Of a stretch of DNA of 64,000 bases, positions 1,100-45,147 are shown piece by piece; position 1 is the first letter of the stretch; each line of letters starts with the position of its first letter. Origin of the DNA: Thermoanaerobaculia bacterium. Its GTDB lineage: Bacteria > Acidobacteriota > Thermoanaerobaculia > Multivoradales > JAIOJS01. The notes below the pieces were generated by a model, which saw only the letters and a program-made list of their open reading frames with translations, was not told the DNA's origin and did no database searches. The position numbers were made by a program, and so were the translations under genes. The stretch lies in the NCBI GenBank assembly GCA_019911795.1, contig JAIOJS010000312.1, positions 3,864 through 67,863 of the forward strand, in the 5' to 3' direction.

Positions 1100-3850
1100 A
1101 TGAGTCGGAACCGAATCCACTACCTAGCCTCGCGGTGCACGCTATTGGCTCTCCTCGGGGGGCTCTCGACCACGGCACTATGGGGCTATGAGTTGGTCTT
1201 CACGCCGCCCGACCCGAGCGTCTCCGAGGGCGCTGGCTCGTTACCAGTGCAGGTTACTCTGGTCGGCTGCTCCAGTCCGTCTAGCGACGTGACGATCGGG
1301 GTTAGTACGATCGGAATCGATGCGACTCAGGGGATGGATTTCAATCCACCCTCGCAGACGTTCCTGGTCCTTGGAGAGTCATCGGCTAGCGAAGTATTGA
1401 ACCTACCGATCCTCCAGGACGGATTGATCGAAGGGGACGAGACCTTCGAGATCCTCCTGGATGCTTCCAATGGTTTCGGTCTTGATTGCAACGGGAACGC
1501 GACCGATCCGAGTTCGAACTTCTTTCAAACCCTGGTCACCATCGTCGACGACGATGTGTCGACGTCACCGCCGACGATCTCGATCGGTGACGTGACGGTG
1601 GTGGAAGGGAACAACGGGACGACCGACGCTGTTTTCGACGTCGAACTTTCGGCTCCTTGGAGCGTACCCCTCTTCGCCATCGCGTCCACCCGTGACGGCA
1701 GCGCCCAAGCGGAATCGGATTATCTGCCCAACAGTGAGCTCTTGGCGTTTGCGGCGGGTCAAACCCATGGGACCTTTAGGGTTGCCATCTTCGGCGACCA
1801 AACGGTCGAGCCGGACGAGGACTTCTTCGTCGATCTCTCGGGGCTGGACGGACCTCTCCCCGGCGATCTCGAAGGGCGGGGAGTCATCGTCAACGACGAT
1901 GAAGGCGGGCCACCGCCACCGTCCGGGAGCCCCGAGCTTCGAATCAACAACACCAACCTTCTCGAAGGCAATGCAGGAGATCGTGACGCAACCTTCGTCG
2001 TCTCCCTCGATCGGGCGGCTCCCAACGGGGTCACGGTGGGCTACCGAACCGAGAACGGCTCGGCTCGAGCTGGCTTCGACTATGTAGCGACGAGCGGTTT
2101 CCTCTCCTTTGGACCCAACGATCTGAGCCGTACCCTCAGTGTGGCGGTGATTGGCGAGACCGTAGTAGAAAACGACGAAACCTTCTTCGTCGTGCTCGAG
2201 GGGCCGAACGGAGCGGTGATCGTCGATGGGCGAGGTCGCGGCACGATCCGCAACGACGACGAGGAGGTATCCGACGCCGAGATCTCGATTCGCGGCAACG
2301 GCGAGCTCACCGCCCGACCGGGCAGTGATGTGAGCTTCGAGGTTCTCGTTACCCAGAACGGTGCGCCCGCGCCGGAGGTCGTTGTGACCTGGACTCTTTC
2401 CGGTGACGCGACCCTGGTGGGCGGAGCCGGTTCCACTTCGGGCAGCGATGGTGTGGCCACCAAGACGGTGCGTCTCGGCGCGGAGAGTGGCGCGGTATCG
2501 GTCGTCGCCACCTTGCCGGGGGGAGCGTCCGCTACGTTCTCTATTCAGGTCCTTCGGCGCCTCGGCGATCTCTTCGAGGATCGACCCGCGGAACGCTCGG
2601 TCGCCGAGACGCTGGACGAGGCCTGCTCCTCCAGTCAGGGTTTGAACAGTCTCTGTCGCTACCTCGGTGGACTCGACGACGAGAACGCGCGGGCGGCCAT
2701 CTCGGAGTTGACGCTAAGAGAGGCGGCCTCGATGGGGACGGTTTCCCTGCTCGGAGCCCATGGCCAGCTGTCCAACGTTGCCAGCCATCTCTCGTCGGTA
2801 CGTCGTTCGGGACAGATCGGTGGCAGTCAGGTCGCTCTGGGTTTGGGGGATCACTCGTGGGAGCCGACGGCTCTGTGGCGCGCGGCCACCGGGCGTGATC
2901 GAAGTGGCCAGCTTCCTGGATTGGAGAGCGCGCTGAGTTTGGTTCCTATGGAGCCCCTGTCCCCACTCTCCGATGACGAGAGTGAACTGGACGAGCCGAC
3001 GCGCGGAGACGTTTTCATCAGCGGACGACTCTCGACGGGAGATCGTGCCGAGACCTCTCTCGAGAGCGGCTTCGACTTCGACACCCTGGGAATGACCTTG
3101 GGATACGACTACCGAGTTTCCCCGGGGATGGTCGTGGGCTTCGCCCTCGGCTACCTCGACACCTCGACCGATTTCAGCCGCGACGGTGGATCGCTCGATG
3201 TCGACGGCTACAGCCTGACTGGCTTCCTCACTCGCTACGGCAGGCACGCCTATCTCGACCTGGTCGGCAGTTGGGGCTCGAACGACTACTCGTTGACCCG
3301 GAACATCGACCTTCCCGTACCCTTCGAGGGGGCGACTCGGTATACCGCACAGGGCGATCCCAGTGGTGATCAGCTGGCCGTCGATCTGGCGGTAGGGGCA
3401 GAATGGGGAGGCGCCGCGACCTTTGGCCTTTTCGGTGGAGTCAGCTGGGTCGACGGGAGCATCGACGCATACTCCGAGTCCGGTGGAGGGGCAACCGCCC
3501 TCACTCTCGAAGAGCAATCGGTTGAGTCACTCCTCGCGGAGGCGGGGGTCGAACTCTCCTATGCGGCAAGTTTCTCCTGGGGTGTCCTACTGCCGCAGCT
3601 CCGGGTGTCCTACCTGCATGAAGCTCAGGACGACGCTCGTCTGATCCGTGGTCGGTTTTCGCTCGATCAGCAAGCGCATGAGTTCGTCATCCCTACCGAG
3701 GTGCCGGACCGTGACTACCTGAGTGTCGGCGCCGGGTTTACCGCGACTTTCGCCCGCGGGCGGTCCTTCTACCTCTTCTGGGAGAGTGATCTCGAGCGCG
3801 ACGACTTGGAGGCCGATCACATCTCGGGAGGCTTCCGCATCGAGCTGTGA
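1100..3850 (+). CDS. Autotransporter-type outer-membrane protein with a Calx-beta repeat passenger domain
   Basis: GGAGG-like ribosome-binding site before the ATG. N-terminal signal peptide. At least three Calx-beta-like repeats (DETFEILLD, DEDFFVDLSG, DETFFVVLEG, each followed by a D-rich ...VNDDE/VDDD segment). An Ig-like segment follows. The C-terminal ~270 aa look like a classical autotransporter beta-domain (GYDYRVSPGMVVGFALGY...YSLTGFL...ends GGFRIEL). Confidence 0.6.
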   Translation: MSRNRIHYLASRCTLLALLGGLSTTALWGYELVFTPPDPSVSEGAGSLPVQVTLVGCSSPSSDVTIGVSTIGIDATQGMDFNPPSQTFLVLGESSASEVLNLPILQDGLIEGDETFEILLDASNGFGLDCNGNATDPSSNFFQTLVTIVDDDVSTSPPTISIGDVTVVEGNNGTTDAVFDVELSAPWSVPLFAIASTRDGSAQAESDYLPNSELLAFAAGQTHGTFRVAIFGDQTVEPDEDFFVDLSGLDGPLPGDLEGRGVIVNDDEGGPPPPSGSPELRINNTNLLEGNAGDRDATFVVSLDRAAPNGVTVGYRTENGSARAGFDYVATSGFLSFGPNDLSRTLSVAVIGETVVENDETFFVVLEGPNGAVIVDGRGRGTIRNDDEEVSDAEISIRGNGELTARPGSDVSFEVLVTQNGAPAPEVVVTWTLSGDATLVGGAGSTSGSDGVATKTVRLGAESGAVSVVATLPGGASATFSIQVLRRLGDLFEDRPAERSVAETLDEACSSSQGLNSLCRYLGGLDDENARAAISELTLREAASMGTVSLLGAHGQLSNVASHLSSVRRSGQIGGSQVALGLGDHSWEPTALWRAATGRDRSGQLPGLESALSLVPMEPLSPLSDDESELDEPTRGDVFISGRLSTGDRAETSLESGFDFDTLGMTLGYDYRVSPGMVVGFALGYLDTSTDFSRDGGSLDVDGYSLTGFLTRYGRHAYLDLVGSWGSNDYSLTRNIDLPVPFEGATRYTAQGDPSGDQLAVDLAVGAEWGGAATFGLFGGVSWVDGSIDAYSESGGGATALTLEEQSVESLLAEAGVELSYAASFSWGVLLPQLRVSYLHEAQDDARLIRGRFSLDQQAHEFVIPTEVPDRDYLSVGAGFTATFARGRSFYLFWESDLERDDLEADHISGGFRIEL

Positions 3851-5808
3851 GTACCCGGGCGTTTCGCGACACCTACGAGGTCCTCGCCAAGATTGGCGAG
3901 GGCGGGATGGGGGCGATCTACAAGGTTCGCCACCGCCACCTCGACCAGCACCGCGTGATCAAGATCATGCGGCCGCATGTCTCGGGAGACGATGACTTCG
4001 AAGCCCGCTTCTTGCGCGAGGCCCGCCTCGAAGCCGAACTGCGCCACCCCAACATCGCGCAACTCTACGAGTTCGAGGTCGCCCCCGAGGGGTCCGCTTA
4101 CATCGTCATGGAGTTCATCGACGGGGTCACTCTCCGTCAGATCCTCGACGTAGCGGGGCCACCATCGCTGCCGTTTACCCTCTTTCTCGCCGACCAGGGG
4201 CTCGAAGCCCTCGCCTACCTTCATCGGAGGGGTTTCGTTCATCGCGACATCTCCCCCGACAACATCATGTTGGGAAGGGATACCGAAGGTCACCCGGTGG
4301 TGAAGGTGATCGATCTCGGCATCGCCAAGAAGACCGAAGAGTCGGACGACCGTCAGATTACTCGCACCGGTACCTTCATCGGTAAGGTCCAGTACGCGTC
4401 GCCGGAACAGTTCGGCAACACGCCGATCGACAGTCGCAGCGATCTCTACTCCTTCGGCATCGTTCTCTATGAAATGCTCACCGGGCTTTATCCGATCGAG
4501 GGTCACGACACCAATTCCTTGATCGGCGGTCACCTCTTCAAGCCGCCGGTGCCGTTCTCCCAGAGCGACCCTCGGGACGAGGTTCCGGAAGAGCTACGGA
4601 GTGCGGTCTTACGGAGCCTCTCGAAGACTCGAGAGGAGCGTTTCGATGGGGCCACGGAATTTCGCGAGGCACTCGCTGCCGTAGACCATAGGGAAGGCGA
4701 CAATGTCGAAGAGACGACTCGGCTCATCGGACTCTGTCAGACCGATCCCGAGACGGCGGCGCCCGGCGAGGATCTCGATATCTTCGGCACCGAAGAGACT
4801 CGGCTGCGCTCGGCGCGGATGCAACTCGAGACGTCGAGCACCACCGTGCTGCCTGGACCGATGGATCCCACCGTTTCGCTGGGGCCGCCGCCGTCGACGG
4901 GGATCCCCCGCTGGGCGCGCCTCGCCGCACCGCTTGCAGTGCTGCTTCTGCTTGCGACGATCTTCGTCGTGCTGCGCCAACAGAGAGTTGTCCCCGAGCC
5001 CGGTGGCCCCGAGGTCGTCGAGGACATCTTGCCGCGGCCCCTGCCCGCCGACCTCCACTTCGGTCGGTACTACGCCCTCGTCATTGGCAACAATGACTAT
5101 CGATCTCTGCCGCGGCTACGAACCGCGGTTGCCGATGCGGGGGCCGTTGGTGAGGTCCTGGCGGAGCGGTACGGCTTCGAGGTGACCACTCTCTACGACG
5201 GTACCCGCCGGCAGATCTACGAGTATCTCGAGGAGGTCGCGGCCAAGGTGGGCCCTGAGGACAGCCTACTGCTTTACTACGCAGGGCACGGGGCCCTCTA
5301 CACCGATAGGAGTCTGTACTGGCAGCCGGTCGATGCCGACCCCGATTCCACCGTCAACTGGCTATCCACCGAGGACGTGAGCGATTTGCTCCGTGAAGTC
5401 ACCGCCCGCAACGTCCTCGTCATCGCCGATTCGTGCTACGCCGGCGCCCTGGCCGGTGAACAGAGACCTCGTCCGCCTCCGACCGTCGACCGCTTGACCT
5501 TCGTCCGCAAGCAGTTGGAGAAGACGTCGCGGCTCGCCTTGACGTCCGGCGGGTTCTCACCCGTTGTCGATGCCGGCGCGGGAGGCACCCACTCAGTCTT
5601 TGCCAAGGCGCTCCTCGAACAGTTGGCGAACAATGAGATCGTTCTCGATGGGGGGCAACTCTACGACCATCTGGTCGATCCGGTAGAGCAGGGCGCGGCC
5701 AGTTTGGACGTCGTACAGCGTCCGGTGTACGCTCCTTTGAGTAGCGCCGGAGACCAAGGCGGGGAATTCTTCTTCGTACCGACCACGCTTAGGGAGGCGA
5801 ACTCATGA
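3847..5808 (+). CDS. Ser/Thr protein kinase fused through one transmembrane helix to a caspase-like (peptidase C14, orthocaspase) domain
   Basis: GTG start overlaps the upstream stop (GTGA). Hanks kinase motifs are present: IGEGGMGAIYKV (glycine loop), VIKI (lysine), HRDISPDNIML (catalytic loop), DLGIAK (DFG variant), SPEQ. The TM helix is WARLAAPLAVLLLLATIFVVL. The C14 domain is YALVIGNNDY...LLLYYAGHG (His)...NVLVIADSCYAG (Cys). Confidence 0.75.
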   Translation: MSTRAFRDTYEVLAKIGEGGMGAIYKVRHRHLDQHRVIKIMRPHVSGDDDFEARFLREARLEAELRHPNIAQLYEFEVAPEGSAYIVMEFIDGVTLRQILDVAGPPSLPFTLFLADQGLEALAYLHRRGFVHRDISPDNIMLGRDTEGHPVVKVIDLGIAKKTEESDDRQITRTGTFIGKVQYASPEQFGNTPIDSRSDLYSFGIVLYEMLTGLYPIEGHDTNSLIGGHLFKPPVPFSQSDPRDEVPEELRSAVLRSLSKTREERFDGATEFREALAAVDHREGDNVEETTRLIGLCQTDPETAAPGEDLDIFGTEETRLRSARMQLETSSTTVLPGPMDPTVSLGPPPSTGIPRWARLAAPLAVLLLLATIFVVLRQQRVVPEPGGPEVVEDILPRPLPADLHFGRYYALVIGNNDYRSLPRLRTAVADAGAVGEVLAERYGFEVTTLYDGTRRQIYEYLEEVAAKVGPEDSLLLYYAGHGALYTDRSLYWQPVDADPDSTVNWLSTEDVSDLLREVTARNVLVIADSCYAGALAGEQRPRPPPTVDRLTFVRKQLEKTSRLALTSGGFSPVVDAGAGGTHSVFAKALLEQLANNEIVLDGGQLYDHLVDPVEQGAASLDVVQRPVYAPLSSAGDQGGEFFFVPTTLREANS

Positions 5809-7499
5809 GCCAGCCGAAGTCGAAAACACAGGGCGGAGTCGTAGACTCTGCTTACTATTCACTTGTGCGTTCTCTCGGAGTCGTTACCGTAGTGGCGACC
5901 CTTGGCCTCGCCTCCACCTCAGCGGCAGAGGCCTTTTCGCCTCCGATCCCGGCCAAGGGTGACAGCGAAGTCGGACAGGCGGAGGACTTCCTCGTCGTCG
6001 ACTGCCTACTGCCGGGGAAGGTGCGACGCTTGGGGCGTCGCCAGACCTACCTGTCGGCTCGTCGCCCCCTGCGTACGACCGCGATCGACTGTCGGATCCG
6101 TGGTGGTGAGTACACCGCTTTCGATCGTGCGACCTACGAGTCTTCGATGCAGGTCTGGCTGGGCGGAGCGCGCGAAGGTGAGGCGGAGGCGCAGTTCTAC
6201 GTGGCCCAGATCTTCGAAAAGGGACTCGGTCGGGATCCTGACTACGCGGCCGCTGCCGATTGGTACCGCAAGGCGGCAGAGCAGGGTCATTCGGGAGCGC
6301 AGACCAGCCTTGGCTTCCTCTACGAGGTTGGCCTTGGAGTCGAGCGCGACCCGGTGGCGGCATTGAGTTGGTACCGCAAGGCGTCCGGACTCGATGAGGA
6401 ACTCGTCGTTCTCGAAGGAGCCGAGTACCGGGAACTACTGGAACGTCGGCAAGAGCTCGAGGAGCGCAATCGGGAACTCGAGGACCTGGAGCGTCGCCTA
6501 CGTGAGACCGAGAAGACGTTGCAGCAGAGTCGCGTCGAGCAGCAGCAGGATGATGTCGCCGAGGCTCGCCTTCAGGAGACCTTGAAGAAACTCCAGACGG
6601 AGCTCGAGGGACGTCGCCAAGATGTTTCGAGGTTGGAGTCCGAAGTCACTCGCCTGGCCGCCACCGAGGGGGCGTCCGTGGCCCCGGGGCCGGAGCATAA
6701 CGAGCCGGCCGGAGCCGTAGACTTCGGGCCTTACCATGCGCTGGTTATCGGAAACGGCGATTACCGCTCGCTTCCGGCGGTTGGCTCGGCTCCCGGCGAT
6801 GCTCGACGTCTCGCCGACCTGCTTCGGGACCGTTACGGATTCGAGGTTCGATTGCTCCTCGATGCGACGCGCTATCAGATCCTCGAGGCGCTCAACCGTC
6901 TGCGCGAGGATCTCACCGAGAAGGACAACCTGGTGCTCTTCTACGCCGGCCACAGTGAGGAGGACGAGGCGGGCTCGCGAGGCTGGTGGAAGCCGGTTGA
7001 CGCCGATCCCACCAGTCGGGCCAATTGGATCTCCCATCGAGTACTCGCAGATCACTTGGAAGTCGTGCCGGCGAAGCACGTGTTGGTGCTCGCCGAGGCT
7101 GCCTATGCCGCCACCCTGACTCGTTCGTCGATACCTCAGCTGCCGGTGGGTATGAGCCCGGCAAAGCGGCAGGAGTATCTGCGTGAGATGTCCGCGCGAC
7201 GGACCCGCCTGGTGTTGGCGTCCGGCGAGCGCAACACTTCGACGGGCGGCAGCGAGGGGGCGACGGCGCGCTTCTCCGACGCCCTCTTTGCCGTCCTGGA
7301 GAAGAACGAAGGAGTGCTTGGCGCCTCCTCGATGTACCGCGAACTCAACAAGTCACTCGCGGACTCGGGCGAGCCGGTCGAGTTTGCACCGATTCGCTGG
7401 TCGCGGCACGAAGGTGGTTCGGACTTCTTTTTCGTGGCCAAGACTCGTGTCAGTCAGGAGTCGCTGGCTTCGGAGCCAGTGGCCCAGCCTGGGAAGTAG
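5805..7499 (+). CDS. Secreted protein with Sel1 repeats, a coiled coil and a caspase-like domain that lacks the catalytic Cys (pseudo-orthocaspase)
   Basis: ATG overlaps the upstream stop (ATGA). Signal peptide VVTVVATLGLASTSAAEA. Sel1-like repeats (AQFYVAQIFEKGLGRDPDYAAAADWYRKAAEQGHSGAQTSLGFLYEVGLGVERD...WYRKAS). A long E/R/L-rich heptad region follows. The C14-like domain is YHALVIGNGDY...LVLFYAGHSEE (His retained)...HVLVLAEAAYAA (Ala at the Cys position). Confidence 0.65.
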   Translation: MSQPKSKTQGGVVDSAYYSLVRSLGVVTVVATLGLASTSAAEAFSPPIPAKGDSEVGQAEDFLVVDCLLPGKVRRLGRRQTYLSARRPLRTTAIDCRIRGGEYTAFDRATYESSMQVWLGGAREGEAEAQFYVAQIFEKGLGRDPDYAAAADWYRKAAEQGHSGAQTSLGFLYEVGLGVERDPVAALSWYRKASGLDEELVVLEGAEYRELLERRQELEERNRELEDLERRLRETEKTLQQSRVEQQQDDVAEARLQETLKKLQTELEGRRQDVSRLESEVTRLAATEGASVAPGPEHNEPAGAVDFGPYHALVIGNGDYRSLPAVGSAPGDARRLADLLRDRYGFEVRLLLDATRYQILEALNRLREDLTEKDNLVLFYAGHSEEDEAGSRGWWKPVDADPTSRANWISHRVLADHLEVVPAKHVLVLAEAAYAATLTRSSIPQLPVGMSPAKRQEYLREMSARRTRLVLASGERNTSTGGSEGATARFSDALFAVLEKNEGVLGASSMYRELNKSLADSGEPVEFAPIRWSRHEGGSDFFFVAKTRVSQESLASEPVAQPGK

Positions 7500-7576
7500 A
7501 TCGCAAGAGGTCTCCACGCTTCTTCGGGCGGTTTGCCTTAGATCATTCTAGAGTCAAACCACCAGGGGCCAGGCGG

Positions 7577-9526
7577 TCATGTTTTGGCTCGACGGCCACG
7601 CAACATGTGACGGTCGGCGTACGAGGCGATCTCGACCAACTGCTCGAGGGGTCCCTCGAGGCGAGGGTCGAGGGCGCTGCGTAGAACCACCTCCTTGGCA
7701 AACAGGAGGCTGAGGTAGCGCAACTTGACGGCAGGACGATCGTCAATATCCCGAAACTCCGTATGGCCGCTGTTGACCTCCCACCGCCCATCGACCAGGC
7801 GGGACCTCCAGGTCGCGCCTGGATCATCGATCAGGGTGGGTTCGGGGATACCGTCGCGGGAGGGGTGGTGCATCGGTTCGTCGAAGACCTCGATCGTCGC
7901 TACCGCCGACGCCTCTTCCGACTCGGTCCAGCCGAAGACGTTGAGCGTCGCTTCGCCCGCGACCTCGCCTGCGATGATCTGAACCTGCGGTCCCGCGGGA
8001 TCGACTTCGCTCAACTGGGCCGTCGCACCGACTAGGCGCCAGCGGAACGACACGTCGCCGTCGACCTCCCTCCCACTGCGGTCGACGGCTCGAGCGCGAA
8101 CGAGACGGCGCCCCCCCAGACGTAATCGCAGAGGAGACGGAGGTAGGGTGAGAGCGTGCAGCGGCCCCGGCGGGAAGGGGATGGTGGGTGAGATCGAGGG
8201 GCCAGAACTGGACAGAGATTCGGAATCCCGCTCCTGGTCCTGGACGTCGGTGCTCATCGGCACCGCTACCCCGGGTGCACTGCCGCTGCCGACCACGCCA
8301 TCTTCGTCGGTCCGGCCCGAGCCGAGGGTGGGATCATCGACCGGCAGGAGCCGATAACGCGGTCGTTCGCGAAAGAAGCCTTGGAAGGCACGCTGAAGAT
8401 CCTTGACGATTCTTTGATCGAGTTCGCGGCTTCGTCGTTCCTGGTCCTCTTCGAGAATCTCCATCAGTCTCGGCTCGAGCTCGCGGAGTCGATGAGCGAA
8501 GGTCTCCGCCGCCGCGTCGGGAACGACCCCTCGACGGCTGCCGGGGGGAATGCGCAGGCCGGGAAAGTCGATCATTCCGGTGAGGCGTGGGTGGGTCCAG
8601 GGTGAGTGAGCAAGATCAAGGGCTGACAGCTCGGCGAAGCTATCGCTGGCCAGAGTCCCGCCCGCGTAGAGCGCCACGTGGCTGGGACCCTCTTCGGTGC
8701 TCGGAGAGCGCAGGTAGAGTTCCAACTGCACGTCAGGGAAGCCCGCGATCGGCAAGCGGTGAAACTGCACGATCGGCTCCCCGAGGAAACGCCGTGGTTG
8801 TACCGGCAGGATCTTCTCCGCCCGTCCCCTCGACATGCGATCCTCGACGACCAGCTCCACGTCGCGATCGAGCAGCTGCCCCCGCAACTCGTCGGCGAGG
8901 AAGTCCGCCGCACGCCGCCCCACCAGTGCGGACTTCGCTTGGGGATGGAGGTCGACGACGACCACCTCGGTCCAACGGTCGTCGAACAGGTTGCGGCGTC
9001 GAATCTTCTCTATCGTGAACTCAGGACGGTCGCGGTGCAGTACGAGGCGGTGAGGGTGCTGTCCGGCAACGGCGCTGCGCATCTCGAGGATCTGGCCCAG
9101 GCTCCAGAAGCCGAGCAGGCCGATGCCGTACTGACCCTGCGTCATCAGGGTCAAGCGCTCCTCGGGGGAGAGGCGCCGCTTGCGGCTATGGCCGATATTG
9201 GTGGCGATGTACCGTAGTGCTTCCAGCCGATCCAACTCGGGCAGGACACCCTCGCCATCATCCAGGATCTTCAGGCAGGGGATGCCGCGCTCGCGGATCC
9301 GCGTCACCCGGATCCGCTGGGCCCCGGCGTCGAGGCTGTTCTGCACCAGCTCGGCGAGCGCCTTGCGAGGATCAGGCTGCGAGAGTGCGAGCCAGCGGAT
9401 CAGCTCGAAGGGATCGTGAACCTTGACTCGTCCCTTCACCACGGGAGAGGTACCCTTGGAGCGACGGCGGCTCCCCTTGGATCTCGACTTGGCCTCGGGG
9501 AAGAGTTCGTGATTGTCAGACATCAT
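7577..9526 (-). CDS. GHKL (Bergerat-fold) ATPase-domain protein with an Ig-like (Big_2-type) domain and a basic N-terminal tail
   Basis: N-box ELVQNSLDAGAQRIRV, G1 box LKILDDGEGV and G2 box GQYGIGLLGFWSLG resemble the Hsp90/MORC/MutL type. The N-terminus is basic (SRSKGSRRRSKG). The C-terminal half has an Ig-like beta segment (DVSFRWRLVGATAQLSEVDPAGPQVQIIAGEVAGEATLNVFG). There is no histidine-kinase H-box. Confidence 0.55.
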   Translation of the reverse strand: MMSDNHELFPEAKSRSKGSRRRSKGTSPVVKGRVKVHDPFELIRWLALSQPDPRKALAELVQNSLDAGAQRIRVTRIRERGIPCLKILDDGEGVLPELDRLEALRYIATNIGHSRKRRLSPEERLTLMTQGQYGIGLLGFWSLGQILEMRSAVAGQHPHRLVLHRDRPEFTIEKIRRRNLFDDRWTEVVVVDLHPQAKSALVGRRAADFLADELRGQLLDRDVELVVEDRMSRGRAEKILPVQPRRFLGEPIVQFHRLPIAGFPDVQLELYLRSPSTEEGPSHVALYAGGTLASDSFAELSALDLAHSPWTHPRLTGMIDFPGLRIPPGSRRGVVPDAAAETFAHRLRELEPRLMEILEEDQERRSRELDQRIVKDLQRAFQGFFRERPRYRLLPVDDPTLGSGRTDEDGVVGSGSAPGVAVPMSTDVQDQERDSESLSSSGPSISPTIPFPPGPLHALTLPPSPLRLRLGGRRLVRARAVDRSGREVDGDVSFRWRLVGATAQLSEVDPAGPQVQIIAGEVAGEATLNVFGWTESEEASAVATIEVFDEPMHHPSRDGIPEPTLIDDPGATWRSRLVDGRWEVNSGHTEFRDIDDRPAVKLRYLSLLFAKEVVLRSALDPRLEGPLEQLVEIASYADRHMLRGRRAKT

Positions 9527-9572
9527 TCTCAGACATCTCAGCGCCCCGCTAGCCGAAGGCGACAGAAGGCCA

Positions 9573-11120
9573 CTAGCGTCGCTTCTTGCGTCGAATCGTC
9601 AACTCCTTGAGCGCCTCGATCGGTCGGCGGTCAGGCGCCAGCAGGCGACTGGCCAGTCTCAGGTGGTCCTCGGCGTCCTCCCACTGTCCGTCGTCGCGGT
9701 CGAGGACCCCGAGGTAGTAGAACGCGAGTCCACACTTGCCGTCGATCCGGACCGCCTCTCGAATCTCATTGCGCGAGGCTTCCGCATACTGGGTCGGTGA
9801 GAGGCGGTAGCGACAGAACGCGGCCTCCGCTCGGTAGAGAGCATTCTGGGGGTCGACATCCGCGGCGAACTGCAAAAACTCGAGGGCTCGACGAAAGTTC
9901 TCGTTCTGCAGAAACTCGAGTCCCTTGCGATACTGGACGGCAGGATCGAGGAGATCGGTCGCGATCATGGGCTGGGTAGGACGGTTGGCGCGATCCCGAC
10001 GCGAGTTGCGTCTTCGCTCGAGAAGGATGCCGCGGCTCTCGGTATGGACGAGCTCGGCGTAAGCCTCCGCGCCCGCGAGAAAGAGGGCTCGCGCTTTCTC
10101 CGAAAGGTCACCCGGCGCTTGTGCCTCGAGGACCCATGGCGAGAACCGTCGCGCGTGTCGAAGGTAGGCGTGTTCGATCGTCTTCAGATCGGCCTCTTCG
10201 GACACTTCCAGAAGGTCGAAGGAATCCTTGCGTCGAAACGAAAGATAGGCTTCGAGGACTCGTCGCTTGAGACCCTCCAGCTCGCTCGCGTTCATCGCAT
10301 CCATCGCCGGTGGATGGATCAACACCTCGGTGGCCTGAACCGCCGAACGGACCCTACCCACCGCCGCCCCCGCCATGCCGCTTTGCGGCGCGAGAGAGCC
10401 GAGGAGGGCCAGCGCGTAGACCACCCGTCCCAGCGTATCCGAAGGAACGCCGCTGGTCAGGGCCAACTGATCGAGGGGTTGCGGTGCCGTGCGGGCGGCG
10501 GCGAGGACCCGCTTGGCGACGCCACCGATGATCAGGTCTGGCTCGTCGAACGGCGGCGCTGGATTGACCACCAGGGGCTCCCCGAGGAGAGGCTGAATTC
10601 CTTCCATGACGCTTTTCGACGGCGTGAGTTTGAGAATGCCGGTGAGGACGAGCTGTGGAGTACGGACTTCGAGGGTCGTTTCCGGCTTCTCGGTCACGTC
10701 GCGAAGTTCGAAATCCCCTTCCGACCAGGTGAAGGGGTCCAGAAGCTTGCGTGCGAGGTTCTGACGCAGCTGCCGATAGAGTTCGACCGCGTCGAGGATC
10801 TCCCTTTCCATCAGGATCTCACCGAGTGGAATCTCACGCTTGAGCGATTCTGGCAGGGCACTCTGTAGGGTCTGGTCATCGATCAGTCCGGCCGAGACCA
10901 GAAACCGTCCCAACGTCTCGTGGACCAGGTTGGAACGGCAGTCGACCGCGACTCCGTCCAGAAAGACGATCTGCTTCTCGACCGGCTTGCGGCTCAGGTG
11001 TAGCATGCCGGTCGTTCGGCTTCGTGCGAGTGCCGTGAGCAACACGGGATAGGGGATTTCCGCGATGTGGCCACGGCGCAGAGCCGAGATCTCAGCGAAG
11101 CGATCTACCGAAGGGATCAT
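9573..11120 (-). CDS. DUF4388-domain protein with a J-domain-like segment (no HPD motif) and a TPR-like C-terminus
   Basis: The N-terminus (FAEISALRRGHIAEIPYPVLLTALARSRTTGMLHLSRKPVEKQIVFLDGVAV) matches the DUF4388 pattern. The internal helix pair DLKTIEHAYLRHARRFSP resembles DnaJ helix II but has FSP where HPD would be. TPR-like helices occupy the C-terminus (ALEFLQFAADVDPQNALYRAEAAF...). Confidence 0.4.
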   Translation of the reverse strand: MIPSVDRFAEISALRRGHIAEIPYPVLLTALARSRTTGMLHLSRKPVEKQIVFLDGVAVDCRSNLVHETLGRFLVSAGLIDDQTLQSALPESLKREIPLGEILMEREILDAVELYRQLRQNLARKLLDPFTWSEGDFELRDVTEKPETTLEVRTPQLVLTGILKLTPSKSVMEGIQPLLGEPLVVNPAPPFDEPDLIIGGVAKRVLAAARTAPQPLDQLALTSGVPSDTLGRVVYALALLGSLAPQSGMAGAAVGRVRSAVQATEVLIHPPAMDAMNASELEGLKRRVLEAYLSFRRKDSFDLLEVSEEADLKTIEHAYLRHARRFSPWVLEAQAPGDLSEKARALFLAGAEAYAELVHTESRGILLERRRNSRRDRANRPTQPMIATDLLDPAVQYRKGLEFLQNENFRRALEFLQFAADVDPQNALYRAEAAFCRYRLSPTQYAEASRNEIREAVRIDGKCGLAFYYLGVLDRDDGQWEDAEDHLRLASRLLAPDRRPIEALKELTIRRKKRR

Positions 11121-11157
11121 TGAGGAGCGATCATATCGCGAGTTCGTGTAGTCCCGC

Positions 11158-12159
11158 CTACTCGTCAGGGGTTTCGGTCAACAGTTCCGTCTCGGGAAAG
11201 AGTTCTTCGAGCAGGACCGTGGCGTAACTCCCGGGTGGGAGGAGTACGCTAACCAGGACGACCCCGGGCTCGATGGTCGCTACTTCCAGGTCTCGAACCA
11301 CGATACGAAGAGGGCGACGTCCTCCCGACATATGGTGTCGGCGGAGCCTGGGCAGTTGGTAGATCCACGGCAGGTCGAGGTCGTGAGCGGCAGCCTTCTC
11401 CAGTTCCAGCGCCTTGCCCTTGGGGGCCCGCATCTTGTGACCGAGGATCGGACCGGTGGGACTCAGTTCGAGTTGATCGGCTAGTCCTTGATGGTCGGCG
11501 GCCCGGAGAACCGGGCGAAGGCCCTGCGTCTCGTGGTGCCAAGCGATGTCGCCATTCAGGAGAACGCCTAGGTCCGGTCCACGTCGCCGGAGGACCTCGT
11601 CGAAGAGAAGTGATTGCAGGGCGGAGAGGAACAGCCCCTCGCGGCGTCGGGGTCCCGACATGCGCTCACCGGCGAGGACGCGACGGCCGAGATCCGCGTT
11701 GTCGCCGTGTCGTCCGTAGCGCTGCCGTCCGAAGCGATTCGGCATCCCGTGGCGATGCATCGTCTCGACGCGGGTTGCGATCTGTTCGGGCCTGTCCTCG
11801 ACTTCGCGCACGGTGATCCGGAAGCGGTTTCCTTCGAGATCGCCGGGACGCAATGGATGGCGGTGTCTAAAGGCCTCCAGGACGGTCACCCCCTCGATAT
11901 CGAGTGCGGTTGCCTGATCGGGATCGAGGTCTGGGACCGACATCCACTGGCGGGTCACCGCTCGGCGATCCTTCCGCCCCGCGTAGCCCACCGCCCGCTC
12001 TTCGAGGCCGAGCCGCTCCGCGATCTCGGTAGCGACATCCTCCGAGTTGCGAAGACGCTTCTCGATGTGGAGAAGGGTGAACGGACCCTCCCCATGCGGT
12101 GGGTAGAGCGGAACTTCGTCAACGAGGAAGTCCTCGGGGGTCTGTCGGATCGTTGCCAT
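11158..12159 (-). CDS. truD: tRNA pseudouridine(13) synthase TruD
   Basis: The N-terminus RQTPEDFLVDEVPLY matches the TruD 'PEDFxVxE' signature. PNRFGRQRYG matches the 'PNYFGxQRFG' motif. Catalytic-region conservation is present and the length is ~333 aa. Confidence 0.75.
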   Translation of the reverse strand: MATIRQTPEDFLVDEVPLYPPHGEGPFTLLHIEKRLRNSEDVATEIAERLGLEERAVGYAGRKDRRAVTRQWMSVPDLDPDQATALDIEGVTVLEAFRHRHPLRPGDLEGNRFRITVREVEDRPEQIATRVETMHRHGMPNRFGRQRYGRHGDNADLGRRVLAGERMSGPRRREGLFLSALQSLLFDEVLRRRGPDLGVLLNGDIAWHHETQGLRPVLRAADHQGLADQLELSPTGPILGHKMRAPKGKALELEKAAAHDLDLPWIYQLPRLRRHHMSGGRRPLRIVVRDLEVATIEPGVVLVSVLLPPGSYATVLLEELFPETELLTETPDE

Positions 12160-27406: not shown

Positions 27407-28173
27407 GTCCTAAGATTCTACCGGTCCACTCAGGGGTTGAGTGGCCGCTCAGCGAAGGTACTCTCGGGGTGGTGGGGGTGGCCCCTTGGGCAACCATCGA
27501 GTTCTGTCGCGTGCTGTATGGCGGCGTTCGAGCCTCGAAGGACTGGTGCTACCCCAGGGTCTTGATCGATATCAACACCAAAATCCCAAGCCGTGGGCGT
27601 CACCTGCAGCTCGGTGAGACGGATCCGTCGGCTGCGATCGCTGCCACCATCGAGGAGCTCGCCAGTCAGGGCGCCACGCTCGCTGTGGTCGTCTGCAATA
27701 CCGCCCATATTCTGTTTGATGGCTGGGGTAGGTCAGCGTCGATTCCGGTCCTCAATATCATCGACGAAACAGTTTCTGCCGCCCGAAGCCACGGAGCGCG
27801 GAAGGTCACCCCACTGGTATCGACGTCCCTGGCCAAGGCTGACCTGTACGGAAGTGCGGTGGAGTCTGTTGGACTGGAATGTACCCGCCTCGGTTCGGAG
27901 GACCAGGAGTTGGTTGGCGAGGTTATCGAGCAGATCAAGATTGAGGGCCAGATGGACAGCATCGTGACGGACCGGGTACGGGCCTTGTTGGAAGCGCTAC
28001 GTCTCCGGGGCGTTGACACGGTCCTTGGGGGATGTACTGAACTCTCCTCGCTCGGAGTCCATTGCCAGGATCTCGGGTTGGAGTTTGTCGACTCGAATGC
28101 CGCCTTGGCGAGATCGGCGCTGGCAGGGATCGGAGTCTCCACCGAGGGGACTTGTCTCGATCCTTCCTCCTAG
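27403..28173 (+). CDS. Asp/Glu/hydantoin racemase-family amino-acid racemase
   Basis: LGVVGVAPWATIEF (GGMGP-type N-motif), VVCNTAHILF (first catalytic Cys motif 'CNTAH') and VLGGCTELSSLG (second catalytic Cys motif 'GCTE'). Confidence 0.7.
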   Translation: MSPKILPVHSGVEWPLSEGTLGVVGVAPWATIEFCRVLYGGVRASKDWCYPRVLIDINTKIPSRGRHLQLGETDPSAAIAATIEELASQGATLAVVVCNTAHILFDGWGRSASIPVLNIIDETVSAARSHGARKVTPLVSTSLAKADLYGSAVESVGLECTRLGSEDQELVGEVIEQIKIEGQMDSIVTDRVRALLEALRLRGVDTVLGGCTELSSLGVHCQDLGLEFVDSNAALARSALAGIGVSTEGTCLDPSS

Positions 28174-30080
28174 GTGCCGTCTCGAATGCTGGATTGGCCC
28201 GGCGACTCCCAAGGCTCGTTCTCCACTTCTCTCCAGTTCTTCCGATCGTAGGGATCGCGATCAGTAAGGACCAGTTGTTTCCCGATCACGAAGGCGTTTC
28301 GCTTCTGCTGACTAAACTGCCAGGGGACGATAGAAACAACGAAGGGCTGGTCTCTTCCAAGGGTCTGCACTGGTTTGTCGTCCAAGTAGGGATTGACGCA
28401 ACCGCCAATCTCCTCGCAGACGATCCTTGGCACTTCAGCGTTGGTGAGGAATGCCTCAGAGGTTCTCAAGGGGCCTGAAGTACGAAGCTCTTTGACGAGG
28501 AGAACAGATCTCGAGCGCACAAAGACACTCGCCGTTGAACCTCCTCGAAGCGCGCGACTAGAGTGGTCTTCAACCGGACCGATGATGCCATGGTCGGAGA
28601 CGATCACGATCTTCGTGTTGTCGTAAACGCCAGCCTGCTTCATCCAGCGAAAGTAGTCGGAGACCAGGAGAAGACTACATCGCGCAGCGTTGGCGTGCTG
28701 CATCGCAAACATGCTCGCGTACCCCTCCTTCCGGAAAACCTCGGCGGGAACCTCGAACTGTACCGGCATTGGGTTGCAGTCCTTACTCAAGTAGTAGGGT
28801 TCGTGCGGCAAGATGTTCCACAGGAGGTTGAAGCTACTAGTCGTCGCTTCGCTGGATGTCAGAGTTGGAAGGGACTTGAGTTCGGCCCACTGACGGAAAG
28901 TCGTACCGGCGGAGTGATCGAGAAACGGTCTCCAAGGGCCGCGCTCGCTGAGCACCTCCTTGATTGCATAGGGCGAACTGCGCATCAGGCCGAGAAGAAC
29001 CAGAAGGTCCGCATAATTGGATCGCGAGAGCGCTTCGGTGGGAACCCCGAACTCCTCGGCTCGATCCATCGCCGTCGCCACCGGTATGTGAGAGCAAGTC
29101 ACGTCGTCCATCTCGAGGAAGGAACAGTCTCCCTTCATGGTGAACCCTAGGCCCCGAGGGTTCACCACATTGACGGTATAGCCGCTTCGAGAGAAGTTGT
29201 AGGGCAACAGGCGGTAAGCCTCTACCGAGATGTCTCGGAGGACTCCATTGCGGGAGTTCATTTCGGGCGGAGTGTAGTCGTAGCCGCCAAGAATTGGGTG
29301 CACACCCGAGATTGAGTTGTCGCCGGCGGCAACCGTCAGTGGATACCATTGGAAGCCATCCAATTCAGTCGCGAGTTGGGGTTCCTTCTCCAGGATCTCC
29401 TCTACAAAGCCCCCCATGAAGCGATCGAGGATCAAGATCAGGACATTGTTCTCGTGGCGTGAGAACTGTAGGGGCGCCTCGGTCCCAGCTTCGACACTTG
29501 TAGGCTCGGTTCCGGAGAGCGTGTCCCTTCTCACCTCCAGGATGCCGACGCTAGTGAGGATCACATTGACAAGAAGTATTGCCGTGACCAATCCCCGACC
29601 GCCGAGGTAGTTGATTGAGAGCGTGGTGGCGACAATGATCAAGACGAGAAGGATGGCATCCAGGGTGGTGCGAGCCGCCAGCTCCAGCGCCGTGATCGGA
29701 ATCTGCTCAAACATCAGCCCGTTCATTGCAGGGTAGCCGAGGGGGAGGATGAAGGAATAGAAAAGCGCGGTGAAGAGACCGGTGACTGCTGCCAGGGTCA
29801 GCAGGGTTCGCATGCGAGGAGAGATTGCGAGCGAATAGAGCACCCCGGCAAGATAGACCGCGACCATTGATTCGCCAACGTTGTTGTGAAGGAGGTAGTC
29901 GAGGTGCAAGTCGATCTCGCCGGGAGACGTAAGGAAGGTCATGATCGGTAGGTACACGTAGACAAGCAGGGCGACCGTACCCACTGATAGCAGGTAGGTG
30001 CTCAGCCGCCAGCGACCCAGGTCCTGAGCTACCGACACCATCGCGCCGTCCGAAAAACCAAGGGAGGCTATGCCGGTCAC
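28170..30080 (-). CDS. Membrane-anchored sulfatase-fold phosphotransferase (LTA-synthase / phosphoglycerol- or phosphoethanolamine-transferase-like)
   Basis: The N-terminus has ~5 TM helices. The C-terminal alkaline-phosphatase/sulfatase-fold domain has LILILDRFMGG (metal-binding Asp region) and KIVIVSDHG (conserved SDHG). It converges with the racemase gene with a 4-nt overlap. Confidence 0.6.
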   Translation of the reverse strand: MTGIASLGFSDGAMVSVAQDLGRWRLSTYLLSVGTVALLVYVYLPIMTFLTSPGEIDLHLDYLLHNNVGESMVAVYLAGVLYSLAISPRMRTLLTLAAVTGLFTALFYSFILPLGYPAMNGLMFEQIPITALELAARTTLDAILLVLIIVATTLSINYLGGRGLVTAILLVNVILTSVGILEVRRDTLSGTEPTSVEAGTEAPLQFSRHENNVLILILDRFMGGFVEEILEKEPQLATELDGFQWYPLTVAAGDNSISGVHPILGGYDYTPPEMNSRNGVLRDISVEAYRLLPYNFSRSGYTVNVVNPRGLGFTMKGDCSFLEMDDVTCSHIPVATAMDRAEEFGVPTEALSRSNYADLLVLLGLMRSSPYAIKEVLSERGPWRPFLDHSAGTTFRQWAELKSLPTLTSSEATTSSFNLLWNILPHEPYYLSKDCNPMPVQFEVPAEVFRKEGYASMFAMQHANAARCSLLLVSDYFRWMKQAGVYDNTKIVIVSDHGIIGPVEDHSSRALRGGSTASVFVRSRSVLLVKELRTSGPLRTSEAFLTNAEVPRIVCEEIGGCVNPYLDDKPVQTLGRDQPFVVSIVPWQFSQQKRNAFVIGKQLVLTDRDPYDRKNWREVENEPWESPGQSSIRDGT

Positions 30081-43997: not shown

Positions 43998-44117
43998 GGG
44001 GGCTCGCGGATTCCCATCGAGTTCCGAGGCAATTTGCGGCGGTGTCGGAACTGAGACACCGAATGTGCTTTTGCGACGTAGTATCGATGATAGCAGCCCC
44101 TCTAGGCGTTGCCCTTT

Positions 44118-44126
44118 GGGGGGGGG
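44118..44126. repeat. G9 (C9 on the coding strand) homopolymer tract upstream of or within the 5' region of the kinase-TPR gene
   Basis: Seen directly: ccctttGGGGGGGGGccagcc. Confidence 0.5.
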
Positions 44127-44397
44127 CCAGCCGCTGCCTTGGAAGCACAGATGTGGCTTCGCAGCCCTCACGACAAATAGCGGGGAGGCGGGGGACAGGC
44201 GGTTTTCGCGCCAATCGCTGCCCGATGGGCTGGTTCGGTTACAATGATAGGGCCTTGGCGGTTCATCCACTGGGGCTGAGCGGGGCGCGGGGATCGAGGA
44301 ACGGTACTGGAGCCCAGGTTCTTGCTGGACGTCTCCAGGGGAGTTTCGGTGATTGTCCACCCCGAGTCCATCCTTCCAACTCCGGTGAGCAAGGGCA

Positions 44398-45147
44398 ATG
44401 AAATTGGCGGAACCCGGCGACCAGGGCGACAAGGTCGTTGAAGCACTCGGTCAACTGAAGTCGCTTCTCGATGACGCTGGGCAACTCGCCCAGGTTCTCG
44501 AATCGAGCGCGAAGTTGGTCGTGCCTCGCCCCGCCAATGCGAGCCAGGTCGAGGCACTGGAGACGCGGTTGAGGGCGGCCGAGAACGATCAGGAGGAGCT
44601 CATCGCTCAGCTCATCGAGGCCGAACGGCAGGCGGGGAAACTGACTAGTCTCTATGTCGCTACCTATCAGCTGCACGTCAGTCTCGACCCGCGCGAGGTT
44701 CAGAGTGCGATCGCCGAGATCACCCGAGATCTACTCGGAGCGGCCAGCTTCGTTCTTCTCATCAAGGAGGAGAACGAGGGTGAGTGTGAAGTTGCGTTGT
44801 CCTTCGGCGTCGACGACGCTACCTCGCGATTCGCCGATGGGACATACCGTGGAGGCGATTCTCTCGTCGATGCGACCCTGACTGATGGCCTGCTTCGTCT
44901 CGAACCGGAGCCCAATTCCGAGGCGACGGCGGTGGTCCCGCTGAGAGTCGAGGATTCGATCGTGGGTGCGCTCGTTATTCTCCGCATGCTCGGCCACAAA
45001 TCAACCCCCCTTTCCGAGGACCGAGACATCCTGGAGCTGTTGGCAGCCCATGCAGCATCGGCCCTTTTCGCCGCAAGGGTCTATTCGCGAACCGACCGCA
45101 AGTTGAAGACGCTACAGGGCCTCGTCAACCTCATTCGCGGTACCTAG
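44398..45147 (+). CDS. Coiled-coil + GAF-domain protein
   Basis: The N-terminus has ~90 aa of heptad-like repeats. A GAF-like fold follows (SLDPREVQSAIAEITRDLLGAASFVLLI...AVVPLRVEDSIVGALVIL). Confidence 0.45.
   Translation: MKLAEPGDQGDKVVEALGQLKSLLDDAGQLAQVLESSAKLVVPRPANASQVEALETRLRAAENDQEELIAQLIEAERQAGKLTSLYVATYQLHVSLDPREVQSAIAEITRDLLGAASFVLLIKEENEGECEVALSFGVDDATSRFADGTYRGGDSLVDATLTDGLLRLEPEPNSEATAVVPLRVEDSIVGALVILRMLGHKSTPLSEDRDILELLAAHAASALFAARVYSRTDRKLKTLQGLVNLIRGT

Follow-up and report, generated by a model that had tools for sequence, protein, structure and literature searches.

The stretch of DNA considered here, which we call the window, comprises 64,000 nucleotides of contig JAIOJS010000312.1 from the Thermoanaerobaculia bacterium assembly GCA_019911795.1 (Acidobacteriota), a metagenome-assembled genome, and all positions given below without further mention are coordinates of this 64-kb window. 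It contains, on the forward strand, three consecutive genes (g1, g2 and g3) that encode an autotransporter, a membrane-bound Ser/Thr kinase carrying a caspase-like domain, and a secreted protein combining Sel1 repeats with a second caspase-like domain (Table 1). An original prediction, made from the nucleotide sequence alone, took this trio for a translationally coupled, envelope-spanning unit of sensing or proteolytic signalling. The three open reading frames (ORFs) and the two 4-nt overlaps that it reported are indeed present, GTGA at 3847-3850 between g1 and g2 and ATGA at 5805-5808 between g2 and g3. In what follows, domains were assigned by Pfam profile searches, the transmembrane (TM) helix and the signal peptides by hydrophobicity heuristics (Kyte-Doolittle, with a 19-residue mean for the g2 helix), and folds by Foldseek comparison of AlphaFold2 (AF2) single-chain models.

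Table 1. Features of the three-gene locus, in window coordinates
Feature	Residues	Position	Strand	Basis
g1: type Va autotransporter, 916 aa		1100..3850	+	ORF, Pfam
g1 beta-barrel	638-892	3011..3775	+	PF03797, 166.7 bits, profile positions 1-252 of 255
g2: Hanks Ser/Thr kinase - single TM helix - C14 caspase-like domain, 653 aa		3847..5808	+	ORF, Pfam
g2 kinase domain, predicted cytoplasmic	10-266	3874..4644	+	Pfam, 5e-43
g2 TM helix, RLAAPLAVLLLLATIFVVL	358-376	4918..4974	+	Kyte-Doolittle mean 2.47, sole such segment
g2 caspase-fold domain, predicted periplasmic	~405-650	5059..5796	+	Pfam C14, AF2 model, Foldseek
g3: secreted Sel1 - coiled coil - pseudo-caspase, 564 aa		5805..7499	+	ORF, Pfam
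g3 leader/signal peptide (hydrophobic core 20-38, AEA/F at 41-44)	1-43	5805..5933	+	hydrophobicity
g3 N-module, small Arg-rich beta-domain, Cys C67 and C96 invariant	~60-110	5982..6134	+	conservation, model
g3 Sel1 repeats	111-194	6135..6386	+	Pfam, two repeats, 1.5e-17; helices in model
g3 antiparallel coiled-coil hairpin (205-244 / 250-287)	205-287	6417..6665	+	AF2 model
g3 pseudo-caspase domain	~308-545	6726..7439	+	Pfam C14, AF2 model
Weak terminator-like hairpin 3' of g3, before a convergent gene (only suggestive)		7517..7530	+	consensus scan and sequence

The protein encoded by g1 is laid out as a signal-like N-terminus (residues 1-29), a passenger (residues ~30-485), a linker and a C-terminal beta-barrel. 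The N-terminus, MSRNRIHYLASRCTLLALLGGLSTTALWG, resembles a signal peptide by the hydrophobicity heuristic. Pfam recognizes three Calx-beta repeats (4.8e-38) and, weakly, Big_1 ahead of the Autotransporter beta-domain (1e-48), which is the domain order of a type Va autotransporter and agrees with the proposal of an autotransporter with Calx-beta repeats; surface display of the passenger is predicted. The autotransporters that accompany g3 homologs in other genomes have a constant barrel and a passenger that varies from ~100 to ~1900 aa, Calx-beta-like in Acidobacteriota and made of thrombospondin-type-3 repeats in one gammaproteobacterium. Both kinds of repeat bind calcium. In one close relative (L001) the autotransporter homolog is found as two ORFs of 914 and 98 aa (4902-7646 and 7708-8004 of that locus, + strand), which reflects either a frameshift, a pseudogene or an assembly error.

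The g2 sequence, identical to an NCBI entry named 'protein kinase [Thermoanaerobaculia bacterium]', joins a Pkinase domain (147.8 bits) to a Peptidase_C14 domain (PF00656, residues 409-614, 3.4e-20, 73.2 bits for a cutoff of 21.4), and this architecture is common to more than 6500 homologs. In alignments of 19, then 60 of them, the kinase residues GEGGMG, K39, E58, H132-R133-D134, N139, D156-L-G and S-P186-E187 are invariant, including D134, the catalytic Asp whose absence would have weakened the original prediction. By profile and catalytic residues g2 is a Hanks-type Ser/Thr kinase. Its lone TM helix lies between the kinase and the C14 domain, as anticipated, and a helix is found at the equivalent place in all kinase-C14 homologs, which is consistent with the predicted topology of a cytoplasmic kinase and a periplasmic caspase-like domain. 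The latter has the intact His and Cys expected of it, within the motifs YYAGH481G and ADSC530YAG (His481 at nt 5287-5289, Cys530 at nt 5434-5436), of which AGHG and ADSC are invariant in the same two sets of homologs. Its AF2 model (predicted local distance difference test score, pLDDT, 91.2) matches MALT1 in Foldseek (E 2.5e-13), and also metacaspase-9, metacaspase-4 and Yca1, so that profile, caspase-hemoglobinase fold and His-Cys dyad all place it in Peptidase C14. The domain is paracaspase/metacaspase-like. An Asp stands two residues ahead of the Cys, where metacaspases such as TbMCA2 have an S1-pocket residue; for this reason the domain is probably Arg/Lys-specific. The invariance of the catalytic residues among these 19-60 homologs indicates purifying selection on the kinase and the caspase domain of g2 alike.

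The third protein has more than 2200 homologs, with 499 loci in species-representative genomes. All g3 homologs begin with a hydrophobic leader, ~30 proteobacterial ones having a lipobox instead. The leader is followed by a small module, hereafter the N-module, whose motif VVDCLLPGKVRRLGRR...DCRIRGGEYT is invariant or nearly so among homologs and which forms four strands (64-99) and a helix in the AF2 model. No Pfam model exists for it. The 927 representative clusters that contain it all have a g3-type architecture, with a spacer of ~100 to ~800 residues. Among the family we also observed three short proteins of 160-181 aa (P0260, P0335, P0367) consisting of two tandem N-module copies and nothing else, and, at the other extreme, members with very long spacers, one of them with an SH3_3 domain; the longest (P0349) has 1267 aa. 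The Sel1 repeats of g3 find sequence matches in the PDB to Sel1 proteins, AlgK and MotX. The signal peptide, the Sel1 repeats and the C14-like domain (Pfam residues 311-520, 3e-15) of the original prediction were thus all found, but its coiled coil of ~100 aa turned out to be an antiparallel hairpin of ~83 residues and not a rod.

The C-terminal part of g3 is an alpha/beta domain (310-545) in an AF2 model of pLDDT 81 and predicted TM-score (pTM) 0.80. It has the caspase fold and the C14 profile and keeps His383 (FYAGHS), but the position of the catalytic Cys (residue 433, nt 7101-7103) is occupied by Ala (LAEAAYAAT), and because of this replacement we regard g3 as a pseudo-caspase and not as an active C14 member. 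When 23, 66 and then 89 homologs were aligned, the acidobacterial members carried Ala or Val at this position, rarely Ser, Ile, His or Glu; more generally, the Cys-less homologs carry Ala, Val or Leu, and the His is retained in 84 of the 89. The C14 domains of g2 and g3 share 39% identity over 249 residues (E 3e-47), with long idiosyncratic motifs in common, which identifies them as paralogs. The best structural matches of both are MALT1, a protein activated by dimerisation, and metacaspases, and the structure models confirm the caspase fold that had been proposed for the two C-terminal domains.

The trio is present in the nearest relatives (66-68% identity), where synteny is uninformative because the whole neighbourhood is collinear as well. 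In distant genomes (37-48% identity), by contrast, all three genes are kept amid entirely unrelated flanks, and their order and orientation differ. The window order of autotransporter, kinase-C14 and Sel1-C14 recurs in one locus (L005); in another (L004) the autotransporter is divergent from kinase-C14 followed by Sel1-C14; in a third (L006) Sel1-C14 followed by the autotransporter is divergent from kinase-C14; and in two more (L007, L008) the order is autotransporter, Sel1-C14, kinase-C14. Since the linkage outlives both the replacement of the flanks and the rearrangement of gene order, the trio is a conserved module and not a case of local synteny. Within L007, a soil metagenome contig, the 3' end of kinase-C14 is overlapped by 4 nt by a gene for a 7TMR-DISM hybrid histidine kinase/response regulator (9824-11683 of that locus, + strand), a possible downstream partner in that lineage.

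When loci are anchored on the kinase-C14 gene, a Sel1-C14 gene adjoins it in 11 of 12, four of which are metagenomic. The twelfth (L009) has a lone kinase-C14, and the same genome carries pairs of Sel1-C14 and autotransporter elsewhere (L018, L020), one of them ~45 kb away. A metagenome scan anchored on g2 gave mixed results (kinase-only and C14-only matches), among which were the four clean kinase-C14 loci, with g3 present in 4/4. The conserved synteny, whose absence was to refute the original prediction, is thus borne out, as are the caspase folds of both C-terminal domains and the catalytic Asp of the kinase, on which its two other refuting conditions turned. The more specific idea of a translationally coupled arrangement with the autotransporter first fares less well: neither the first place of the autotransporter nor the coupling is a conserved feature, and three relatives (L001, L004, L005) have gaps of 64-100 nt in place of the 4-nt overlaps. 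As the junctions differ in this way, we give the overlaps little weight as evidence; they are ordinary in operons and say little alone, and it is the conserved linkage of the genes that exceeds what chance would produce.

This linkage was quantified in a survey anchored on g3, in which one genome per species was scanned and the best 80 of the 499 confirmed loci were analysed by profile searches on six-frame ORFs. In the 45 loci whose two flanks each extend for 4 kb or more, a Hanks kinase or an autotransporter barrel lies within 2 kb of the g3 homolog in 42, a kinase in 33 and a barrel in 20, and both lie within 4.5 kb in 14. Autotransporter homologs adjoin g3 homologs in 36/78 loci. If the density of kinase and barrel genes more than 5 kb away within the same loci is taken as the expectation, 44 kinases are observed for 2.8 expected (15-fold) and 36 barrels for 1.7 expected (21-fold), bearing in mind that these loci are not phylogenetically independent.

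A second regularity appears when the state of the g3 homolog at the Cys position is tabulated with that of the nearest kinase. In 19 loci a g3 homolog lacking the Cys stands beside a kinase with an active C14 domain, and in 29 loci a g3 homolog with the Cys stands beside a kinase without any C14 domain. The combination of a Cys-bearing g3 homolog with a kinase-C14 was found in 0 loci, whereas the absence of the Cys together with the absence of a kinase C14 domain was found in 7, 5 of them in type VI secretion system (T6SS) clusters. In other words, a kinase with an active C14 domain has a Cys-less partner in 19/19 cases, in line with the earlier proposal of one active and one inactive caspase domain. 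Three or more independent losses of the Cys, with the fold and the His kept, are indicated by a nearest-neighbour analysis: in Acidobacteriota, in a Halomonas/Ectothiorhodospiraceae clade and in one Halieaceae genome.

The simplest history that we can propose for these patterns is one of duplication followed by loss of the Cys. The ancestral state would have been an active periplasmic Sel1-caspase working with a membrane kinase; in Acidobacteriota the caspase domain of this protein would have been duplicated onto the kinase, and the free copy would then have lost its nucleophile while retaining its fold, its His and its partners. One acidobacterial locus (L047), with a g2-like kinase (287 bits) lacking C14, a Cys-bearing partner and an autotransporter, looks like the intermediate state before this fusion. 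Fusion of the caspase domain to the kinase is, in Rosetta stone fashion, evidence that kinase and Sel1-caspase act together physically. The repeated loss of the nucleophile, with all else kept, suggests that catalysis is dispensable in some lineages and favours binding or an adaptor role as the core activity of the family, while the invariance of the g2 dyad argues that proteolysis still matters in the acidobacterial lineage.

Outside Acidobacteriota, the g3 family occurs in Gamma- and Alphaproteobacteria (Cellvibrionaceae, Pseudoteredinibacter, Halomonas, Billgrantia, Nitrococcus mobilis, Wenzhouxiangella, HTCC2080, Novosphingobium and others), and single loci are assigned to Flavobacteriales and Methylomirabilota. 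The proteobacterial Sel1-C14 proteins usually retain DSCY[AS]G, and many have a lipobox. The idea that this lipobox and an adjacent autotransporter are alternative anchors was considered and rejected, as both occur together in several loci. The partner kinase in Proteobacteria consists of a kinase domain, a TM helix and a helical periplasmic tail of ~120 residues, without a caspase domain; these helical tails make up two small families, neither related to C14 nor with any counterpart in g2. A lipoprotein of ~270-297 aa adjoins the Sel1-caspase gene in 25/80 g3 loci (for instance at 9068-9961 (-) in L052 and 9024-9836 (-) in L085). It is found in many Proteobacteria and in the acidobacterial-type loci L026 and L028, and the window lacks it. 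Pfam gives a weak alpha/beta-hydrolase match for one member and none for another. The lipoprotein is likely a fourth component of the proteobacterial version.

About a dozen of the proteobacterial g3 loci lie inside T6SS clusters, beside TssM, TagF/PP2C and Fha. The order in Nitrococcus is TssM/IcmF, TagF-PP2C, kinase, small lipoprotein, Sel1-caspase, and in HTCC2080 the kinase/Sel1-caspase pair stands between genes for TssA/B/C, TssJ, Fha and TssK. The kinase in these T6SS-linked loci occupies the position of PpkA. Among the T6SS-linked hosts, the Sel1-C14 partner lacks the Cys in Halomonas and Billgrantia and has it in Cellvibrio and Nitrococcus. This T6SS context and the Cys-bearing proteobacterial relatives could not be seen from the sequence on which the original prediction was based. 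In Nitrococcus mobilis Nb-231 (L052) the gene directly upstream of the T6SS kinase encodes a 502-aa fusion of the TagF N-terminal domain to PP2C (5784-7292, + strand). PpkA is activated via its periplasmic domain by outer-membrane or periplasmic partners, which are TagQ/TagR, RtkS or TssW according to the system (PMC13584744, PMC6082577, PMC12607579). Caspase, Sel1 and autotransporter components are not mentioned in these three papers, nor in a 2026 review of T6SS accessory factors.

Taken together, the conserved linkage, the domains and the residue states support the idea of an envelope-spanning sensing or signalling unit that the original prediction had put forward, with contacts, topology and direction predicted. 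We consider it somewhat better than an even bet (roughly 55%) that the trio is a trans-envelope signalling unit controlling a eukaryote-type Ser/Thr kinase. The barrel of g1 would serve as an outer-membrane anchor or sensor with its variable, calcium-binding Calx-beta passenger facing outward, and g2 would be an inner-membrane receptor kinase, with the catalytic domain in the cytoplasm and the caspase domain in the periplasm. The secreted g3 protein would be the adaptor between them: its N-module, of a disulfide type, and its Sel1 repeats could form a dock contacting the outer membrane or the g1 barrel, the coiled-coil hairpin would be a spacer, and the pseudo-caspase, at the other end, may pair with the caspase domain of g2 or compete at it, as in c-FLIP/caspase-8 and MALT1 dimers. 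Such pairing would govern the oligomeric or proteolytic state of g2 on the periplasmic side, and with it the activity of the kinase, and a cue at the surface or the outer membrane would be converted into cytoplasmic phosphorylation. The protease might act on the linker of g2, on g1 or on the Arg-rich N-module of g3, all three being speculative candidates. Observed are the gene structure, the domains and folds, the conservation of residues and of gene linkage, the T6SS surroundings of relatives and the complementary Cys states; the topology, the physical contacts, the direction of signalling, the stimulus and the substrates of both protease and kinase are in this proposal what we infer.

More tentatively, and with odds that we put below even, the same switch may be widespread. 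A Sel1-caspase protein anchored by an autotransporter or by a lipid would gate Hanks kinases, including the PpkA-type kinases of T6SS, through heterodimerisation with their periplasmic part or limited proteolysis of it. If true, this switch would operate in several gammaproteobacterial T6SS lineages and would be a prokaryotic counterpart of caspase-8/c-FLIP, extracytoplasmic and unrelated to cell death.

Several observations weigh against these proposals. Many acidobacterial loci consist only of the autotransporter and g3, with no kinase within 10 kb, and many proteobacterial loci are without an autotransporter. The complementarity of Cys states largely follows phylogeny and reflects few independent events. 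The proteobacterial kinases linked to g3 are no closer to the g2 kinase than unlinked ones (64-100 versus 75-136 bits), so that the T6SS analogy rests on the g3 family and not on kinase orthology; we make no claim of orthology between g2 and PpkA, kinase orthology across phyla being unsupported. Finally, genes for FHA and PP2C proteins and T6SS genes are absent from the 64-kb window and from the flanks of the acidobacterial relatives: no TssA/B/C/J/K/M or TagF was found in either, and the combination of kinase, Fha and PppA is lacking there.

The alternative that survives best, although we think it unlikely, is that the locus serves the maturation or quality control of the autotransporter, with a periplasmic caspase-like protease recruited by g3 to process g1 (its passenger, its linker or a stalled intermediate) or other envelope proteins and a kinase that reports on this processing or tunes it. 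The adjacency of autotransporter and g3 is the tightest link of all in Acidobacteriota, with gaps of 0-130 nt, and they are often the sole pair present; the His/Cys dyad of g2 is invariant together with the Asp two residues before the Cys; and Sel1/TPR proteins that dock on outer-membrane barrels do exist, AlgK being among the sequence matches of g3. Yet the autotransporter-g3 pairs without a nearby kinase-C14 encode only a Cys-less caspase, hence no protease to accompany the supposed substrate, seven loci are without any active caspase, and many proteobacterial loci contain kinase and g3 without an autotransporter. The extreme variation in passenger length is more in keeping with a sensor or an adhesin than with a dedicated substrate, and processing would leave unexplained the constant association with a kinase and the T6SS phospho-regulators in some loci.

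We find it still less plausible that the trio is a module of conflict, defence or programmed cell death, in which a caspase-like effector and a kinase act against phage or competitors, after the manner of NTPase conflict systems that contain caspases or of defence genes based on kinases. Both C14 domains do have sub-threshold scores to the NCBIfam model 'caspase, EACC1-associated type' (90 and 47 bits for a cutoff of 140), the g2 kinase matches the PADLOC kinase models PD-T4-6 and mad6, some relatives sit in clusters of an interbacterial weapon, the T6SS, and the closest architectural precedent, DdvA, regulates a defence island (PMC11506125). However, both caspase domains are predicted to be extracytoplasmic, unlike cytoplasmic death effectors, and no linked NTPase, nuclease or other effector was found. 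The PADLOC matches correspond to generic Hanks-kinase similarity (g1 has none and g3 a partial one at 1.5e-6), and on this ground the assignment to an anti-phage defence system of PADLOC-DB was rejected. Moreover, the locus lies amid housekeeping genes, is vertically conserved and has a syntenic neighbourhood in relatives, which is not the behaviour of a variable island.

Lastly, a coincidental operon, whose genes have no joint function and whose caspase-like domains are independent ligand-binding sensors or relics, could invoke the frequency of 4-nt overlaps in compact operons and the collinear neighbourhood of the nearest relatives, but it is very hard to reconcile with a linkage that outlasts the loss of flanking synteny and rearrangements across phyla, with the 15- to 21-fold enrichment over local background, and with two paralogous domains in complementary catalytic states.

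A few words are needed on the boundaries of the locus. The g1 ATG (1100) is preceded at 7 nt by the Shine-Dalgarno sequence GGAGG and the g3 ATG (5805), also at 7 nt, by GGGAGG. The GTG start of g2 (3847) is forced, being the earliest start codon in frame and only nine codons ahead of the kinase domain, which begins at residue 10. Translational coupling, as first proposed, has both overlaps in its favour, and against it the 4-nt junctions that are not kept in all relatives. A consensus scan revealed no sigma-70-like promoter, but such a scan is uninformative for an acidobacterium; the terminator-like hairpin after g3 is only suggestive, because the number of such sites in the scan equals the chance expectation. 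The trio is flanked by housekeeping genes (cyclophilin, TruD, ATP-sulfurylase, RND pump). Next to g3 is the gene for a 649-aa HATPase_c_3 protein (GHKL ATPase; 7577-9526, - strand), without PADLOC match; it is absent at this place from the syntenic loci L001 and L002/L003 and is thus a lineage-specific insertion. Beyond it, and convergent to the trio, comes a gene for a DUF4388 (PatA_N) and TPR protein (9573-11120, - strand), kept in L001-L003 and not in distant relatives; since it is conserved at this position only in close relatives, it probably lies outside the module. Further away, the window encodes another Hanks kinase, of 1059 aa and with TPR repeats (41253-44432, - strand), whose kinase domain matches g2 at no better than E 3e-13 and which is unrelated to the module, and a 636-aa ORF (28170-30080, - strand) without Pfam match at E <= 1e-5.

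To our knowledge, caspase homologs abound in bacteria, but a role is known for hardly any of them, and cell death is the context in which they are usually considered. The genomic evidence above links a large caspase-fold family, with 499 loci in species-representative genomes and over 900 clusters at 50% identity, to Ser/Thr-kinase signalling outside the cytoplasm. The family amounts to a natural experiment in the pairing of enzyme and pseudo-enzyme, and in lineages without TagQRST it may provide the input module that the T6SS phosphorylation switch is missing. Autotransporter barrels gain a possible role as signalling anchors, and the N-module of g3 represents a previously undefined conserved domain with two Cys. 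Cultured hosts (Halomonas, Billgrantia, Nitrococcus mobilis Nb-231, Cellvibrio, Pseudoteredinibacter and HTCC2080) allow these ideas to be tested directly.

How does the trio compare with known systems? No curated NCBIfam model reaches its cutoff for g1, g2 or g3, so that no name can be transferred to them, and the earlier impression that the trio is not a described system agrees with our literature searches, which turned up no description of the module. The catalogues of metacaspases list Sel1-metacaspase and TM-containing architectures (PMC3501461, PMC4933709), Sel1 being among the commonest partner domains of the prokaryotic ones (PMC3501461). The linkage to kinases, autotransporters or T6SS and the N-module are not described in these papers, nor in PMC6426788. 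The g2 and g3 domains belong to Peptidase_C14, as do those of orthocaspases such as MaOC1. Pseudo-orthocaspases of cyanobacteria, which are linked to photosynthesis, have exchanged His for Tyr and Cys for Ser (Klemencic et al. 2019, PMC6426788), whereas g3 keeps the His and its family replaces the Cys by Ala, Val or Leu.

The nearest architectural precedent is DdvA, in which an anti-sigma domain is followed by a TM helix and a periplasmic TPR-CHAT part; in the DdvA dimer the active sites face the interface, and the proposed trigger is trans-autoproteolysis (PMC11506125). Like g2 and g3, it combines a single-pass transducer and a cytoplasmic output with periplasmic repeats and a His/Cys dyad of the caspase superfamily. 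Its output is, however, the release of a sigma factor and not a kinase, its protease is CHAT and not C14, and it carries repeats and protease on one chain, whereas the trio places the repeats on a second protein, the pseudo-enzyme paralog. DdvA has in addition a narrow distribution and no autotransporter partner, and the trio for its part encodes neither a cytoplasmic zinc anti-sigma domain nor a periplasmic CHAT domain. The resemblance to AlgK-AlgE and to periplasmic adaptors of the HlyD/MacA type, namely Sel1/TPR-like proteins docking on an outer-membrane barrel, is limited to homology with g3 in the repeat or hairpin. AlgK-AlgE and these adaptors serve to export polymers or substrates, without a kinase or a caspase fold in any of them. 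With caspase-8/c-FLIP and MALT1 the trio shares a Cys-less paralog that keeps the fold and is encoded alongside the active one, but it differs in its predicted location (the bacterial periplasm), in sequence (~20% identity) and in an output that is a fused Ser/Thr kinase, and the heterodimerisation of g2 and g3 is here a hypothesis only.

In its logic the trio is closest to the TagQ/TagR(/TagS/TagT)-PpkA-PppA-Fha1 pathway of Pseudomonas aeruginosa, to RtkS-PpkA of Serratia and to TssW-PpkA of Acidovorax citrulli, where a component associated with the outer membrane acts together with a periplasmic partner on the periplasmic domain of a single-pass Hanks kinase that phosphorylates cytoplasmic targets. 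TagR has an FGE-sulfatase-like domain. Neither g1 nor g3 shows homology to TagQ, TagR, TagS or TagT: no FGE-sulfatase-type or Lol-like domain was found in them, only Autotransporter and Calx-beta domains in the former and Sel1 and C14 domains in the latter. Unlike the PpkA pathways, the trio is built of non-homologous parts, an autotransporter barrel, a protein combining Sel1, coiled-coil and caspase-fold regions and a caspase domain that, in Acidobacteriota, forms part of the kinase protein. What appears new here is thus an input to a Hanks kinase across the envelope, assembled from unrelated parts and endowed with a caspase/pseudo-caspase pair.

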